The notes under the pieces: model-generated | What the model was told of the DNA's origin: nothing | Seen by the model: the letters and a program-made list of their open reading frames with translations, nothing else | The model's database searches: none | Program-made: the position numbers and the translations under genes | From: Alkalispirochaeta sp. | GTDB lineage: Bacteria > Spirochaetota > Spirochaetia > DSM-27196 > Alkalispirochaetaceae | Reading direction: 5' to 3' | Length of the DNA stretch: 64,000 bases | Assembly: GCA_965242725.1 (NCBI GenBank) | Contig: CBDESZ010000016.1 | Coordinates: 32,001-96,000, forward strand | Shown here: in pieces, positions 3,423-11,260 of the stretch | How the letters are laid out: every line of letters starts with the position of its first letter | How positions within the stretch are numbered: position 1 is the first letter of the stretch

Positions 3423-4007
3423 TCACCCCACCGTCTCCAAAAACTCCCCCGCATACCTGGACGAATACGGCGCCGAAGAATGCTCAAGATACATCCACCG
3501 GAGATTCACAATCTGGCGGATATGGAAGAAGTCATGGGCAACCCACGCCGCAACGATATCACCCGCCCGGAGCGCCTGCGTCCCCGGGGCGGGATTCCGG
3601 TGCAGCACATCGGGATCGAAGTTGTCCACCCTTCCCAGCCATTCCAGAGAGGCGGCGCGCTCACGATTGAAGACCTGCACCACGCCGCTCAAATCGAGCT
3701 CCCTCCCCGGCGCATCCTCCGGCCCAAAGGGCCACTCAAACGACGGAAACGGATCGTCCGGATTCCGCAGCACCGAGGAAAGGCGGGCGCGGAAATCATC
3801 GCATTCCTCAACAACCAGGTGGCGGACGATCTGAAGCAGCGACCACCGCTCCTCCGCCGACCATCGACGGACCACATCCGACGCACCGCCCGCCGCATCG
3901 GAAGCAACGCCGCTCCACGCAGCCTCCTCCGGTTGCACCCCCTCAAGGAGCCCGACAATGGCCGCGCCGTTCGCCTCCAGTCGCAATCGCAACTCATCAA
4001 TATTCAT
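3423..4007 (-). CDS. DinB family protein
   Basis: WSLLQIVRHL and HDFFHIRQI histidine motifs. Confidence 0.8.
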   Translation of the reverse strand: MNIDELRLRLEANGAAIVGLLEGVQPEEAAWSGVASDAAGGASDVVRRWSAEERWSLLQIVRHLVVEECDDFRARLSSVLRNPDDPFPSFEWPFGPEDAPGRELDLSGVVQVFNRERAASLEWLGRVDNFDPDVLHRNPAPGTQALRAGDIVAAWVAHDFFHIRQIVNLRWMYLEHSSAPYSSRYAGEFLETVG

Positions 4008-4128
4008 GCATCACAGCATATCAGCCGTTCCGGCATTCCGGAAAATATAATTGAACCATCCGGTTCCGCTGAGCGGACACCCCTCATCACCCCTTTCTAT
4101 CGCCTCCCGGGGCGAGTATTCTACGGGC

Positions 4129-4539
4129 ATGGACCCCGACGCGCTGGCCCAGGCACTGAAGAATGTCTCAACCTATGACGTCGCCCGCTCCGGCGGACCG
4201 GGCGGGCAAAATGTGAACAAGCTCAACACAAAGGTGGTTCTTCGTGTGCCGGTGGGCCAGCTCCCCCTCTCGGAAGCAGAAGCGGCAAGAATCCGCCGCG
4301 TCCTGGAAAACCGGATCAACCGTGAGGACGAGCTGGTCATTCACTCCTCGGAAACTCGCAGTCAGACGGAGAACAGAACGCGGGCGGAAGAGCGCGCCTT
4401 GGGGCTGCTCCTTGAAGCGGCCACACCGCCCAAACGGCGCAAGCGCACACGCCCGTCCAAAGCGGCCCGGGAACGGCGCATCATCGCCAAGAAACAACGA
4501 GGCGAAACAAAGCGATTCCGGCGGGATCCGGAGGGGTAG
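4129..4539 (+). CDS. arfB: alternative ribosome-rescue peptidyl-tRNA hydrolase ArfB
   Basis: RSGGPGGQNVNK GGQ motif; basic C-terminal tail RKRTRPSKAARERR. Confidence 0.92.
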   Translation: MDPDALAQALKNVSTYDVARSGGPGGQNVNKLNTKVVLRVPVGQLPLSEAEAARIRRVLENRINREDELVIHSSETRSQTENRTRAEERALGLLLEAATPPKRRKRTRPSKAARERRIIAKKQRGETKRFRRDPEG

Positions 4540-4732
4540 GAGGAGTGGGTGGATTGATGGTGTTTCGTTGTAGTAGAATCCGTGTCGTGGGATGTTCTTT
4601 CGACGGAAACGTGACTCTCATGTTGGTCGCGGCGCGGTTTCCGGACATCGCCGTTACTTCCTGGGCGACTCGTCGGTGCCTCAATACCGATCTCCTCAAA
4701 GACTAAAAGTAACCGTCTCTATGAGTGCAGGA

Positions 4733-4738
4733 TGTCAA
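4733..4738 (-). promoter_or_regulatory. -35 box TTGACA of the IS110 circle-junction promoter
   Basis: Joining the element ends gives TTGACA-N17-CATCAT (-10 from 6081-6086), pointing at the ncRNA and transposase. Confidence 0.7.
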
Positions 4739-5823
4739 GCAGCGAAGTCGAAGTTCTTGAATCGTTCGAAGTCGCGCTTCTTTCGCCGAAACGAGCTCTC
4801 TCTTGGAAACCGACTGGCCTCACCATTCTTCAACATATAGAAGATCGTTCCGATCGTTCTTCCTACAACTGCGACACGGATCTTCTTGCGGGACTTCCCC
4901 AAGGATCGAGCGACAAATCGATCGAGTAGCGGATTGCCGTCCACTAAGTGATGAGAGGCTTCCAACAACAGGGTAAATGTGAGTCGTCGTCCTCGCTTGT
5001 TGATACCGCCAATATGGGTGCGTTCATTTGACGAATCGACTCGAGGTGCGGCCCGGAGATAACTTACGAGATGTCTCCTTGTACGAAAACGTCGGATATC
5101 GACGATGTCCGACATGATGCAGACGCTGCCGAACACGCTTATCCCATGGATCGTCATTAGTACTTGGACTTCCTGAGAATATCGGATGACGCCAAGAGCT
5201 GTGATTCGGTCTCGAGTTGCCTCAAAGTCCGCGTCGATCAATTCGTACTCCCTCAGAAGTTGACGGATCATAAACCGGTCGGAGTCGCGGAAGCTGGGGT
5301 TCGCAAAAACCTCATCGGGGCTTGTCATCAGATCTTGACGACTGATTTGAATCATTCGCTGGCGACATACTGCGAATATTCGATTGCGAATCCGGTTCCG
5401 GGAGGTCGTCAGATACTGGTAGTGCGTGACAAGTACTCGGAGTTCCTGTGTCTTTTCGTCCGGAACAAAGACTTCAGGAAAATGGTCGTCCTTATCGTCG
5501 TTTTCAAGATGGCGTTTGAGTGCGTTAGCAAGTTTCCTGGCATCAACACGATCGGTCTTTTTCACGCCGCCCCATATCAGGCGCATATCCATCGGATTCA
5601 CGACAAAGACCCGCGCTCCCGTTGCCCGAACCAATCCAGCGAAAAAGAACGCCCCGCTGCCCGCCTCAACGCAAACGGCAGCATCTGCATTCAAGTCGTC
5701 GAGGAAACGATCGATACTATCCAGCGGGTATCGTCGATTCTGCCGCTCGATGCCGTTCATCCCTTCTCGAATCAGGTGGACCGTGATTTGCGTCGAATGC
5801 TGATCAACACCAACATAGACCAT
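4735..5823 (-). CDS. IS110-family DEDD recombinase/transposase
   Basis: YVGVDQH, CVEAG, KKTDRVDA, TIHGIS and DSSNERTHIGGINKRG motifs; RBS GAGGAGG upstream. Confidence 0.93.
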   Translation of the reverse strand: MVYVGVDQHSTQITVHLIREGMNGIERQNRRYPLDSIDRFLDDLNADAAVCVEAGSGAFFFAGLVRATGARVFVVNPMDMRLIWGGVKKTDRVDARKLANALKRHLENDDKDDHFPEVFVPDEKTQELRVLVTHYQYLTTSRNRIRNRIFAVCRQRMIQISRQDLMTSPDEVFANPSFRDSDRFMIRQLLREYELIDADFEATRDRITALGVIRYSQEVQVLMTIHGISVFGSVCIMSDIVDIRRFRTRRHLVSYLRAAPRVDSSNERTHIGGINKRGRRLTFTLLLEASHHLVDGNPLLDRFVARSLGKSRKKIRVAVVGRTIGTIFYMLKNGEASRFPRESSFRRKKRDFERFKNFDFAA

Positions 5824-5847
5824 ACTGCAACCTCCTCAGAAAAATTT

Positions 5848-6060
5848 GAGAGAAGGACGGTCCTGATCGAGTGCGTCTCATGCCTCTATGCGAGCTACCG
5901 CCATCCGCTTACACGGCGGGCCCAGGAGATCGTACGAAGAAGGCTGACTAGTCCAATTAACGGGCTTGTGATTTTCCGATGAGAATCACCCCCAACGGTT
6001 ACTTCAGCCTTCGTCAATCCGTCACCTCTCAGGACCGACGGTACCTTCTCTCGTACGACC
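5848..6060 (-). ncRNA. putative IS110 bridge/seek RNA
   Basis: Nested stems 5848-5866/6029-6052, 5939-5947/6004-6012 and 5968-5976/5981-5989; internal-loop segments match both halves of the insertion target; exact ends unknown. Confidence 0.8.
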
Positions 6061-6159
6061 TCTCAAGGCCGCCGGCACTCATGATGTCCAATTTTCCCGC
6101 ACCTTACGATCAGCACCGGAGTGAATCATACTGCTGACTTTCAAAAGGAGGGCATCGGT

Positions 6160-6471
6160 ATGACAGCGAATAATCAGTCTGAAGAGCGCCGGGAAATGGT
6201 GCGCCAGTTTCATGAAAGCGGGATGACTCAAAAGGACTTTGCCGCGTTTTATGGAGTCACGCGGAGCACCTTGGGATATTGGGTGCGACGGCTTCGGGAG
6301 AACGAGCAATCGACGGAAACGACCTCGTTCGTCCCCGTCGGAGCGATTATGTCTCCCACACGTTCAACGGCACTTCGCGTCATCATCCGTTCCGGTGTAA
6401 CGGTAGAATTGGATCTTCCCGCGTCTGAAGAAACGATACGAATGGTGTTGAAGGCGGCCCAGTCGATATGA
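6160..6471 (+). CDS. tnpA: IS66 TnpA accessory HTH protein
   Basis: SGMTQKDFAAFYGVTRSTLGYWVRR and FVPV motifs. Confidence 0.85.
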   Translation: MTANNQSEERREMVRQFHESGMTQKDFAAFYGVTRSTLGYWVRRLRENEQSTETTSFVPVGAIMSPTRSTALRVIIRSGVTVELDLPASEETIRMVLKAAQSI

Positions 6472-6818
6472 TCGGTCCGGATTTCTCGCAGATAGCGATT
6501 TATGTCCGACCCGGCATCACGGACATGCGGAAAGCTATAAATGGTCTTGCGATCATCGCGACCGAGCAGATGAACAAAGACCCATTGTCCGGAGCACTGT
6601 TCCTGTTCTGCAACCGCTACCGAAGAATTATGAAGGCCCTTTATTGGGACAAGAACGGGTTCTGTCTTTGGCAGAAGAAACTCGAAAAGCACCGCTTCCC
6701 GTGGCCGCAAACTGAAGAGGCTGCTCGGAGCATCACCGCCGGAGAACTCCGGATGCTTCTCGAGGGTATCGACTTCTGGCATGTCCACGAGTCGTTACCG
6801 TATCGTTCGGTCTCCTAA
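6468..6818 (+). CDS. tnpB: IS66 TnpB accessory protein
   Basis: TDMRKAINGL...LFLFCN...KALYWDKNGFCLWQKKLE. Confidence 0.92.
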   Translation: MIGPDFSQIAIYVRPGITDMRKAINGLAIIATEQMNKDPLSGALFLFCNRYRRIMKALYWDKNGFCLWQKKLEKHRFPWPQTEEAARSITAGELRMLLEGIDFWHVHESLPYRSVS

Positions 6819-7206
6819 GGCTATACACACAAATTCCAGCATGCTAGAATTCTGGCCATGGCGTTGGCCGATACGGTGCTGGAACAGCTTGATCCTCAAG
6901 TCCGATCCTACATCGAAGATCTCGAGAAACAGTCCGCATCACTGGCACGTGAAAATGAACACTTATCCCAGGAGAAAGAAGCCCTTTCCAACGAGGTGCA
7001 GTCTCTTGTGTACACCGGCCCAAAACGGACACGTATTCCGGTGGAAAGCGGACAGTGATTCCGGCGTAATCCGGACACCGATTCCGGCGGAAAACGGACA
7101 GTTTTTCCGGAGCGCCGGAATCGATTCAGCCTGACAGAAGAGATCCTCGATCAATACGGGCACTCCCGGCAAACTGGTGGGTAACATCATTGTGAGGGAG
7201 TACGGA

Positions 7207-8754
7207 ATGCCGAGAGAGAGGATACCTGTGAAACACATGCGCAAATTGCTTGCGCTCACCTACGAGAGCAAACTGGGGCTTCGGGACGTATCGCGACTCA
7301 CCGGAGTATCGAAGACGACGATCAGTGAATACCTGGTGCGATTCAGACGCACCGGAATCAGCTTTGAGAAGAGCCTTGAGCTCACCGATGACGAACTGCT
7401 TGGCCTGTTCGAAGAGAAAAAGCAGGAAGAAAGCGAGCAGTACACGCAGGTGATGGCGCTCTTCCCGGAATACGCAAAACGGTTAAAGCGCCGGGGAATG
7501 ACCAAGCAGCTGTTGTGGGAGGAGTACCGGACGCAGCACCCCGACGGGTATCGCTACAGCCAGTTCTGTCACCACTTTGGCATGTTCCTGGAATCCGGCG
7601 AGGTCACCATGCGGCAACCTCACGAACCGGGAGACATGGCCTACATCGATTACGCCGGTGAGACCTTCCCGTACTATCGAGACGGCGAAGAACAGCAGGC
7701 AGAGGTATTCGTTGCGGTACTCGGAGCAAGCCAACTCGCGTATGTCGAAGCTGACGAGAGCCAGAAACAGGAAGCGTTTCTCCGTTCAACCGAGCGGGCG
7801 TTGCGCTATTTCGACGGAGTTCCCCGCGCTCTGGTACCGGATAATCTGAAGGCGGCCGTGCTCAAGGCAAGCAAATACGAACCGGAAATCAATCCGCTGT
7901 TCGACGATTTTGCCGAGTATTACCGAACGACGGTTATTCCCGCCAGGGCATACAAACCAAAAGACAAGGCCCTGGCGGAGAACACCGTCAAATTAACCTA
8001 CCAGCGGATTTTCGCCCCGCTGTACGGCAGGACGTTCCATTCGTTGGCTGAGCTCAACCAGGCCATCGCCGAACGCCTTGAGACCCACAATACTCGAGAA
8101 TTGACCAAGCTGCAAATCTCTCGACGGCAGTTGTTTGAGGAGATCGAACGATCGGCGCTGAAGACGCTGCCCAGCGCGCCGTATCCGATGAAATCCTTCG
8201 AGAACCACAAGGTTGCACCGGACTATCACTTTATCCTGTCGGAAGATAAGCACTACTACTCCGTTCCCTGGCAGTTGAAGGGTGTGCAGGTAAAGGTGAT
8301 CTTCGATGAGCGTATCGTCGCGGTATATCACGACAACGTACGCGTTGCCCAGCACCGGCGCAGCCGGAAAAAAGGGCAGTACACGACAAAAGCCGAGCAC
8401 ATGCCCAAGCACCACCGGTTTTTTCAATCCTGGTCTGCCGAAAAGTTCACCTCCTGGGCCAATTCCATCGGAGAAGAGACGTTCCTGGTGATTTCTCGGC
8501 TCCTGAGCGATAAACCCCATGAGCAACAGGCATACAAGTCCTGTCTTGGGGTGCTGAATATGGCACAGGAAGTCGGTTCAGATCGACTGAACTTGGCCTG
8601 TCGACGAGCCCTTAACTACTCCAGAATCAGCTATCGGGATGTCCGTGGGTATCTGGACGAGATTTTGCGCCAGGAGAAGGATGATCACGAGGATGATCGG
8701 GTACTTCTTTTCACCGACCACAAGAATCTGCGTGATTCGGCAATCTACAAGTAA
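7207..8754 (+). CDS. istA: IS21 transposase IstA
   Basis: YIDYAG, VPDNLKAAV, KPKDKALAE. Confidence 0.93.
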   Translation: MPRERIPVKHMRKLLALTYESKLGLRDVSRLTGVSKTTISEYLVRFRRTGISFEKSLELTDDELLGLFEEKKQEESEQYTQVMALFPEYAKRLKRRGMTKQLLWEEYRTQHPDGYRYSQFCHHFGMFLESGEVTMRQPHEPGDMAYIDYAGETFPYYRDGEEQQAEVFVAVLGASQLAYVEADESQKQEAFLRSTERALRYFDGVPRALVPDNLKAAVLKASKYEPEINPLFDDFAEYYRTTVIPARAYKPKDKALAENTVKLTYQRIFAPLYGRTFHSLAELNQAIAERLETHNTRELTKLQISRRQLFEEIERSALKTLPSAPYPMKSFENHKVAPDYHFILSEDKHYYSVPWQLKGVQVKVIFDERIVAVYHDNVRVAQHRRSRKKGQYTTKAEHMPKHHRFFQSWSAEKFTSWANSIGEETFLVISRLLSDKPHEQQAYKSCLGVLNMAQEVGSDRLNLACRRALNYSRISYRDVRGYLDEILRQEKDDHEDDRVLLFTDHKNLRDSAIYK

Positions 8755-8756
8755 GG

Positions 8757-9506
8757 ATGAGCACCATGAACAATAATCAGGCAACGATCAACAGAATGAC
8801 CGAGATGCGCCTGCATGGAATGGCCCAGGCGTTTCGCACGCTTCAGGAAACCGGAAAAACCATGGATCTCACCATCGACGAGACGATCACGTACCTGATC
8901 GACGCCGAATGGGATGAGAAGCACAACCGACGGCTCGATCGGCTTACCCGGGCTGCCCGGTTCCGCTACCAGGCTGCATTGGAAGATATCGACTACACCC
9001 TGGATCGGAATCTGGACAAGAACCAGATTCTTCGGCTCGCCGACTGCTCGTGGATATCCCGGGGGCAGGATCTTCTCATCACCGGTCCAACCGGTTGTGG
9101 AAAAAGCTTTCTCGGATCAGCCTTCGGGCATCAGGCGTGCCAGCACGGCCATTCCGTGGCGTACTTTTCCGCATCTCGCCTGTTCAACGAAATCGAAGCG
9201 GCCAAGGCGGATGGAACATACCTGAAACATCTGACACGAATCATGAAGAGCGCATTACTGCTCATCGACGACTTCGGCCTGGAGCCGCTCAACCATACCT
9301 CTCGAATGGCTCTCCTTGAAATCCTTGAGGACCGGCACCGACGGAAATCAACAATGATCATCTCTCAGCAACCGGTAGAGAACTGGCATGCCCTCATAGG
9401 CGACCCGACGATCGCCGACGCAATCATGGATCGGCTTGCATTTCATTCTCACCGAATTGAGATCACCGGCGACACGGTGAGGAGGAAACTCTATGCGGTA
9501 GATTGA
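8757..9506 (+). CDS. istB: IS21 ATPase IstB
   Basis: GPTGCGKS, LLIDDFG, ADAIMDRL. Confidence 0.93.
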   Translation: MSTMNNNQATINRMTEMRLHGMAQAFRTLQETGKTMDLTIDETITYLIDAEWDEKHNRRLDRLTRAARFRYQAALEDIDYTLDRNLDKNQILRLADCSWISRGQDLLITGPTGCGKSFLGSAFGHQACQHGHSVAYFSASRLFNEIEAAKADGTYLKHLTRIMKSALLLIDDFGLEPLNHTSRMALLEILEDRHRRKSTMIISQQPVENWHALIGDPTIADAIMDRLAFHSHRIEITGDTVRRKLYAVD

Positions 9507-11260
9507 CCTGAAAACGGACAGCTGTTATGAGTGATGGCGAGGATTTTGTTCCTTCAGGCAGCTGTCCGTTTTCGCCCGGAATCCCTGTCCGAAATCACCG
9601 GAGTACACACTCTCGAAGAGAAGCTCCAGCTGGCTGTTTTTCTCCGTTTCGGTCGTTCCAGTGAGCAATCCACCGTCGCTCCCGGCCAGGGCGATCTGTT
9701 TACCGAGGCCGATGACACAACCACGGCGGAGTCAGAAGAATCCGAGGACAAAGACACCGTAACGGTCGCCGCCCATACGAAGAAAAAGCCCGGCCGCAAG
9801 CCGATTGATCCGGCGCTTCCCCGCTTTGAACGGGTCATCGATATTTCCGATGGCGACAAACAGTGTGCCTGTGGTCACCAGATGGTACGGATCGGTGAAG
9901 AAGTTACCGAGCGCATTCAGGTCATTCCGGAGAAGATCTGGGTCGATCGTATCGTTCGCCCCAAATACGCATGCCACCAATGCGAAGGGTCCGGTGATGA
10001 ATCCAAACCCGCAGTGCGAATAGCGCCGGTGGAACCGACAGTGGTTCCCGGAGGTATCGCCACCGCGAGCCTGATCGCCTTTATCCTGGTTAACAAGTTT
10101 GTGGATCACTTGCCGTTCTACCGGCAGGAAAAACGATTTGAGCGGATCGGGATCACCATATCCCGAGAGAACATGAGTAACTGGACGATCCGCTCTGCCC
10201 AGGTACTCCAGCCATTGATCGATCGGTTTCGGACGCTGATTCGCGGAGGGCCGGTGGTGAATGTCGATGATACCCGGGTACAGGTCATGAAAGAACCGGG
10301 GCGGGCAGATACAACGAACAGCTTTATGTGGCTTGCCCGCGGCGGGCCGCCGGATTCACCGGTAACACTGTATCACTACAGCCCGACCCGGAGCGCCGAC
10401 TATCTCAGACGACTCCTCTCAGGGACTGCGCTCTACATGCAGGGTGACGCGTATCAGGCGCATGAGCAACTGGCAAAGGAAGAACCCGGCATTATGCGGG
10501 TTGGGTGCTTCGCCCATGCCCGGCGAAAGTTTCACGAGGCGGCGAAGGGGAGCAAGAAAGCCGGCGCTGCCCACGAGGGGATGAAATACATCGGCCAGCT
10601 CTACCGGATCGAGACGGAGTTGCGTGCATTGGGTCTCTCCGACGATGAGTTCTCTAGGAAACGACGTGAGAGGACAGAACCGATCATGGCGAAGTATCAT
10701 CAATGGTTGACCAAGAAGCAGCAGGCCGTTGTTCCTTCAACTCTTCTGGGAAAGGCAGTGACCTATACGCTCGACGAATGGCCGGCGCTTGTTCGCTACC
10801 TCGATCACCCGGCACTCACCCCGGACAATAATGCCGCCGAAAACGCAATCCGCCCCTTTGTTCTGGGCCGGAAGAACTGGCTGTTCTCCGGAAGCCCGAA
10901 CGGCGCTGCCGCCTCATGCGCGATCTATTCATTGATCGAGACTGCGAAGCAGAACAGCCTGAACCCGTTCGCGTATCTGTACTATGTCCTTGATCGGGCT
11001 CCACGGATCATCGCCGATTCCGAATGGGATGAGCTGCTTCCCGGTAAGCTCACTGAGGAAACGATATCAGCATCCTACCCCGCACCGGGGCGTTTAATTT
11101 GACGGTTACGACTAAAAACGAGACATGCCAGTCGAGAGTCACCAAGAAAAGTGCAAAAGAATCTGGACACTACCCGAACGCTTCGAAGGTATTCTGTATA
11201 GATTTTGCGACAGCCTCTATATGCTTCGTAAATGTGATGACCGTTCACGAAGAGGATAGT

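Follow-up and report, generated by a model that had tools for sequence, protein, structure and literature searches.

An IS110-family element of a divergent clade whose guide RNA matches its insertion site in the left terminal repeat of an IS66-family element

The window analyzed here is a 64,000-nucleotide stretch of Alkalispirochaeta sp. (contig CBDESZ010000016.1, positions 32,001 to 96,000). It carries an insertion sequence (IS) of the IS110 family within the left terminal inverted repeat of an IS66-family element, and the non-coding end of this IS contains a two-loop RNA scaffold whose guide strands match the sequences on both sides of the insertion point. We propose, with a probability of roughly 0.85, that it is an intact-looking member of a divergent clade that was directed into the IS66 repeat by its own guide RNA. 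The coordinates of all features are given in Table 1.

Guide strands and the IS66 terminal repeat

Excision of 4717-6085 together with one GT restores GTAACCGTCCAATT. The IS66 right end, read on the reverse strand (11096-11109), is GTAACCGTCAAATT and differs from it at one of 14 positions. The interrupted target is an IS66-family end, as seen from the tnpA, tnpB, and tnpC genes, the 8-bp duplication, and the terminal repeats that agree at 13 of 14 positions once the IS110-family element is removed. An earlier reading of this stretch (hereafter the original prediction) had claimed that removal of the element rebuilds the IS66 left end, and that a loop in the non-coding end matches both halves of this repeat. 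The first claim held on excision, the second was borne out by direct reading, a repeat search, and a covariance model, and every coordinate given there agreed with direct reading. The segment 5951-5958 (GTCCAATT) is identical to 6086-6093, and 5995-6003 (ACGGTTACT) is the reverse complement of 4708-4716 (AGTAACCGT), so that the two guides match their own target at 8/8 and 9/9 positions. The repeat search returned 4707-4716 and 5995-6004 as 10-nt arms of 100% complementarity. A scan of the locus for k-mer pairs placed the true pair first (8 + 10 nt); the unconstrained scan over all loci was noisy, with background sums of 15-17 versus 18 for the true pair.

Structure and strand of the guide RNA

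A covariance model was built from 22 relatives, with the window element left out. It matched the non-coding end on the minus strand, the strand of the transposase gene (Table 1), whereas the plus strand gave 10.4 bits (E 0.43). The model has one match in the whole genome. Over 100 homologue loci it gave 80 matches, and only one of these is not on the strand of the transposase. The regions upstream of the clade transposase genes align as a conserved scaffold with two internal loops. Across its four stems (20 pairs, 23 sequences), 92.8% of the cells pair, versus 18-58% with slid partners, and 5 of the 20 pairs are changed on both sides. The guide positions are the variable positions of this scaffold, which is conserved in 23 of 23 aligned relatives. 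An RNA from 5877-6014 is probably made in the cell.

The original prediction had named two stems that close the target loop. The basal one (5939-5947/6004-6012) stands, with nine perfect pairs and an extended form of 12 nt (5936-5947/6004-6015, 92%). The other, 5968-5976/5981-5989, pairs at 8 of 9 positions on the minus-strand RNA but is an apical hairpin; the distal closure throughout the family is a conserved 4-bp stem, UGGG/CCCG (5991-5994/5961-5964). In the donor loop, the 3' strand of the clade reads AUAGA-NG, and in each of the 8 other target groups (GG, AG, TG, CG) the NG fits the 2 nt present at both junctions. The 5' strand varies with the first bases of the left end (ACGAU/ATCAT, ACAAU/ATTAT, ACAGC/GCTAT).

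Upstream of the target loop, the clade has conserved TTGAnn-16/17-TAtCAT boxes (6038-6066 in the window, minus strand), which may act as the guide RNA promoter. Through two perfect 9-nt inverted repeats (5848-5866/6029-6052), the segment 5' of the target loop could pair with the one directly preceding the ribosome-binding site; a single transcript would include both only if it began upstream of this possible promoter.

Covariation of guides and flanks in relatives

A search for related loci with the single protein as the query found none, and an alignment was needed; an alignment of 19 proteins retrieved 41 genomic and 79 metagenomic loci. Among full-length relatives, the closest are 43-48% identical to the window transposase, and one 206-aa fragment is 67% identical. 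The clade follows a common plan. In element orientation, the left target half (LT) is followed by the core (NG), a 2-nt prefix, AT(C/T)ATGAG, the transposase gene, the terminus CTCATAGA, the core (NG) again, and the right target half (RT). In the target loop, the second core base and RT appear as their reverse complement in the 5' strand (9 nt), and the 3' strand is LT plus the core plus the 2-nt left-end prefix.

Guides were compared with flanks in two ways. The curated test used 19 loci in 9 target groups, namely those of the 23 aligned loci that have both junctions on the contig. The 5' and 3' guides matched their own flanks at means of 7.5/9 and 7.1/8, versus 2.8/9 and 3.8/8 across groups (280 ordered pairs). 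In the automated test, guides were extracted from the model alignment for 51 loci; two of these (L099 and L102) had no usable guides and were scored as misses. The 5' guide reached at least 8/9 on its own flanks in 26 of 51 loci, versus 27 of 2464 foreign combinations, and the 3' guide reached at least 7/8 in 39 of 51, versus 193 of 2464. The guides of relatives therefore track their own flanks.

The match between guide and target is beyond chance, because the true pair ranks first, the guide positions vary on a conserved scaffold, and the relatives match their own flanks. That the complementarity is coincidental, and the region an untranslated leader without guide function, is accordingly very improbable. 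A scan of 4000-9500 matched no Rfam family, as a mere leader would have it, but the covariance model match (E 5e-17) resolves the strand, guides and flanks covary in the relatives, and the two matches sit exactly at both junctions.

The transposase

The family assignment made in the original prediction is upheld: the element belongs to the IS110 family in the wide sense (DEDD transposases). The open frame matches PF01548 (N-terminal DEDD/RuvC, E 1.1e-11) and PF02371 (C-terminal Transposase_20, E 1.5e-12). In a profile alignment to 8wt6, D7, E53, D91, D94, and S265 fall in the catalytic columns of IS621, the residue roles being those given in Hiraizumi 2024 (PMC11208158). The profile of the 19 clade proteins matches the IS621 transposase 8wt6 (E 1.1e-10) and ISCro4 9t56, while a search of the Protein Data Bank with the transposase as a single sequence gave no match; the similarity to IS621 is thus detectable by profile only. 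Named IS elements in plasmid records (the ISAtu7, IS1328, and ISMch4 families) share just 27-29% transposase identity with it. The non-coding ends are unequal, with 262 nt upstream of the transposase gene versus 18 nt downstream, from stop codon to junction.

The crossover core

The original prediction had the two guides overlapping on a 2-nt GT core. GT is indeed repeated at the junctions, but the repeat extends to GTC (4715-4717 and 6086-6088), and GT is one of three readings of it, so that the core is not secure. With TC as the core, the core adjoins the conserved terminus as in all relatives, yet the left-end prefix has 1 nt instead of 2. Applying the family rule on both sides fits unequal cores, GG on the left, as the donor loop reads, and GA on the right; this reading implies a 13-nt target and a core mismatch between donor and target. 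Other IS66-type ends in the genome favor a 14-mer target, those retrieved with the 14-mer as the query being biased toward it, and a by-eye alignment to the IS66 right end slightly favors a 13-mer (18/23 versus 16/23 positions).

Proposed mechanism

Here, we propose a course of insertion modeled on the bridge RNA or seekRNA mechanism, as described in Durrant 2024 (PMC11208160), Hiraizumi 2024 (PMC11208158), and Siddiquee 2024 (PMC11187229). The non-coding end that precedes the transposase gene would express a two-loop guide RNA, transcribed in the direction of that gene. The two guide strands of its target loop would each pair with a different DNA strand, the 5' guide to one side of the crossover and the 3' guide to the opposite side, and jointly they would cover the 13-14 outermost bases of the IS66 left terminal inverted repeat. 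The donor loop would read the ends of the element itself. The complex of recombinase and RNA would thereby have put the circular element into the IS66 repeat, with the crossover at a 2-nt core, here within the repeated GTC. The element may still be active.

Several observations weigh against this explanation. The IS110-family element is single-copy in the genome, and target fidelity thus rests on one insertion. No relative above 48% full-length identity was present among the loci obtained with flanks, none of the 79 other clade guide RNAs reads an IS66 end, and the flanks of the relatives are ordinary genes or short repeated intergenic motifs. The donor loop of the window element reads GG, and the right junction has GA. 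The candidate -10 box of the clade is GGTAtCAT, and the window element alone departs from its nearly invariant A, with a G in this place. A sigma-70 promoter scan of the non-coding end of the window element called no promoter: the box pair scans as TTGAAA-17-TATCAT in the relative L063, whereas the window copy, TTGAGA-17-TACCGT, fails the scan. The first promoter-like box of the relative L059 fails it also. A weakened or ageing copy would fit the departed box A, the lack of a called promoter, and the donor-loop GG against the junction GA.

These same features, together with the single copy, could also be read as signs of an immobile relic, in which a genuine guide/target pair belongs to a single old insertion that has lost the ability to transpose. 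We regard this as possible but rather unlikely. The open frame is whole and keeps all five catalytic residues, and the RNA scaffold scores 71 bits. Both target guides are still perfect, which leaves little time since insertion, and fragments of the transposase gene that are 100% and ~94% identical occur in contigs of two other metagenome runs.

It is likewise doubtful that the insertion was RNA-guided but used the IS66 end as a one-off target, through a recently retargeted guide or at a near-cognate site, and not habitually. Only one insertion is known, and the guide RNAs of all 79 other clade members read other sequences. IS66-type ends elsewhere in the genome (GTAAGCGTCCG... at C3:56982 and C3:59328, and GTAAGCGTCCGATT twice in C25), which differ from the target at 1-2 positions, carry no insertion. 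The window guides, however, match perfectly over 17 positions, and the site is therefore cognate rather than near-cognate. By arithmetic, a genome of 4.3 Mb should contain a given exact 14-mer ~0.03 times, so that the persistence of a guide for it depends on a recurring target sequence, as transposon ends provide. By this indirect argument, the lineage of this element may live on IS66 ends. The claim of the original prediction that the element specifically targets IS66 ends goes further than the observations, since the element is single-copy, with no other copy at an IS66 end, and no IS66-type guide is found among the other clade RNAs.

The 21 other genomes of the family contain no relative of the element, and among 400 sampled genomes of the phylum relatives occur in 2 only, at 31-34% identity, so that no close relative came from either set. 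In the genome itself, sites of the form GTAA[GC]CG[TC]C number 193 and are mostly chance occurrences, and only those at C3:56982/59328 and the two in C25 look IS66-type. An uninterrupted relative of the IS66 left end was not found in the 21 family genomes, 4 of which matched in the tnpB part alone, and a search of the 400 phylum genomes for the left end gave nothing except one 27-nt match.

Comparison with the IS110 and IS1111 types

The comparisons in this paragraph follow the three papers cited above. With the IS1111-type elements that use a seekRNA (ISEc11, ISPa11, and ISKpn4; PMC11187229), the window element shares the DEDD transposase, the order of the guides (the top-strand match lies 5' of the bottom-strand match; PMC11187229), and the overlap of the two matches at the insertion point. 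It also resembles them in its subterminal inverted repeats, which are 7-17 bp in the IS1111 type (PMC11208160) and here pair at 10 of 11 positions. It differs from this type in having only 18 nt downstream of the transposase gene, with the RNA gene upstream, where IS1111 members have a long downstream non-coding region; a few members with an upstream non-coding region, such as ISMtsp17, are given as exceptions (PMC11187229). The C-terminal motif differs as well, being GL-P-x4-S(t)G in the IS1111 type (PMC11187229) and RAAPRVDSSN (AAP-x4-SN) in the window element, which fits neither the IS110 nor the IS1111 logo. With IS621 and ISEc21 of the IS110 type, the window element has in common the upstream non-coding end, in which the target loop precedes the donor loop, and with IS621 the inclusion of the core in both guides. 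The handshake guide of IS621 (PMC11208158) has a counterpart in the clade, in that the target-loop 3' strand continues for 2 nt into the donor end. The IS110 type, in contrast, has the bottom-strand match (LTG) 5' of the top-strand match (RTG) (PMC11208160 and PMC11187229), the reverse of the order seen here, and either no subterminal inverted repeats or ones of 2-3 bp, against the 11-nt arms of the window element. The core is CT in IS621 and NG in the clade.

The clade is thus mixed, with an upstream RNA gene as in the IS110 type and with the guide order and subterminal repeats of the IS1111 type; judged by these sequence features it is not IS621-like. The comparison with IS621 drawn in the original prediction is loose: it holds for the upstream RNA and the aligned catalytic residues, but not for the guide order or the subterminal repeats. 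As these 80 guide RNAs combine features that separate the two types, they may help in mapping the diversity of bridge recombinases. More tentatively, the clade could be a distinct architectural class of RNA-guided IS, in which an upstream RNA gene goes together with the guide order of the IS1111 type, subterminal repeats, a core of the form NG, and a handshake of 2 nt. For most members the landing sites would be short intergenic repeats, and the window element would have been naturally retargeted to the IS66 terminal repeat as a parasite of IS66. If this were true, IS66 ends would be portable landing sites, each end being disabled on entry.

Insertion into the terminal repeat of another transposable element is a known habit in this family. 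IS4321 and IS5075 reportedly target the terminal repeats of Tn21-family transposons, and IS1383 is said to target the inverted repeats of IS1384, in both cases on the strength of many insertions. Like the window element, these are ISs of the same family that lie inside the terminal repeat of another element; they differ from it in the number of insertions, many against one, and in the target, which for the window element is an IS66-family end. A search of open-access papers and bioRxiv found no report of IS110 or IS1111 elements that target IS66 ends. With the present case, IS66 ends join the transposon termini at which RNA-guided IS110/IS1111 elements land, and the case would represent a natural retargeting inside a clade whose other members read short intergenic repeats. 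Biologically the addition is modest, as both the mechanism (in print since 2024) and the habit are known.

Nested architecture of the locus

The window contains a nest of insertion sequences, in which an IS66-family host has an IS110-family and an IS21-like element inside it. The IS110-family insertion divides the IS66 left terminal repeat, with the outer 7-8 bases on one side and the remainder on the other, and the IS21-like element splits tnpC after ~50 codons. It is reasonable to suppose that the former insertion disables the IS66 end and so immobilizes the IS66; in this copy, such a disruption is redundant because the IS21-like element already splits tnpC. The IS66 is a single copy in the genome, and the IS21-like element has three identical copies. 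A contig of metagenome run X5 spans the empty site of the IS21-like element: the end at 7006 continues as the sequence after 9613.

Table 1 Positions of the IS110-family element, its guide RNA, the target halves, and the surrounding elements in the window
Feature	Positions	Strand	Remarks
IS110-family element	4717-6085	-	1369 bp between repeated GT; ends movable by 1-2 nt within the GTC repeat; ends set by homology with relatives
Transposase, open frame	4735-5823	-	362 aa; PF01548 + PF02371
Conserved right-end terminus	4718-4725	-	CTCATAGA in element orientation; by homology with relatives
Subterminal inverted repeat, right-end arm	4721-4731	.	Pairs at 10/11 positions with 6072-6082 (91%)
Subterminal inverted repeat, left-end arm	6072-6082	.	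11-nt arm; partner 4721-4731
Guide RNA core (target loop + donor loop)	5877-6014	-	Covariance model, 71.3 bits, E 5.4e-17
Target-binding loop	5939-6012	-	Basal stem 5939-5947/6004-6012, distal stem 5961-5964/5991-5994, apical hairpin 5968-5989
5' strand of target loop, RNA AGUAACCGU	5995-6003	-	Pairs with the strand reading ACGGTTACT, the outer IS66 end + 1 nt of flank
3' strand of target loop, RNA AAUUGGAC	5951-5958	-	Equals the left junction in element orientation; pairs with the + strand GTCCAATT at 6086-6093
Donor-binding loop	5878-5937	-	Basal stem 5935-5937/5878-5880, distal stem 5921-5924/5891-5894
Donor loop strands	5925-5934 (5' strand); 5883-5890 (3' strand)	-	3' strand CAUAGAGG matches the right end
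Left target half	4707-4716	+	2 nt of the IS66 target duplication + first 8 nt of IS66
Right target half	6086-6093	+	Onward part of the IS66 left terminal repeat
IS66-family element	4709-11109	+	Two nested insertions; 8-bp target site duplication GACTAAAA at 4701-4708 and 11110-11117; right terminal repeat 11096-11109
IS66 tnpA	6121-6471	+	Helix-turn-helix
IS66 tnpB	6468-6818	+	PF05717, E 6e-36
IS66 tnpC, first ~50 codons	6858-7006	+	Upstream of the IS21-like insertion
IS21-like element	7007-9609	+	istA 7177-8754, istB 8757-9506; 4-bp duplication CTCT at 7003-7006/9610-9613
IS66 tnpC, portion 3' of the IS21-like insertion	9614-11102	+	PF03050 (E 2.5e-91), PF13007, PF13005, PF13817

Occurrence in metagenomes and insertion sites of relatives

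The contigs of two metagenome runs contain pieces 100% and ~94% identical to the transposase gene, which do not reach the ends of the element. The ~94% pieces are contigs of a sediment run (X6) that correspond to three parts of the gene (window 4804-5811), and a closer relative therefore exists than any locus obtained with flanks. In the contigs of runs X1, X4, X5, and X6, no joints, empty IS66 end, or circle junction was found, those of X5 and X6 covering internal pieces only. Pattern matches in viral contigs (the right junction at 2 loci, the 5' guide plus stem at 20 loci) were rejected as chance, since the RNA model matched in 0 of 22.

The idea that the whole clade targets other transposons was dropped: among 42 frames in the flanks, transposases are present only at L059 (ISL3) and at L068 and L069 (further IS110). 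The nearest relatives (43-48%; L018-L021, L023, L027, L059, L061, and L079) all lie in a near-palindrome, GGGG/TCWGACCCC (the slash marks the junction), with a left flank that varies among loci; more copies of this near-palindrome occur near the L021 and L019 insertions, and it looks like a REP-type repeat. In the group L066-L081, the junction CAG/GTTAAGCAAATGTTAG lies in a longer repeated intergenic element, with both flanks conserved (GCGCCAA... on the left) and neighboring genes that differ among loci. The right end is tandemly duplicated at L020:3526-3600, where a segment of ~50 nt that contains the last codons and CTCATAGAG is present twice, and L060 has three tandem copies of GTCTCATAGAG at the 3' contig end. 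Second IS110-family elements or guide RNAs are found at most 1-2 kb from the first at L018:2011-2142 (minus strand), L068:73-1164, and L069:794-1906.

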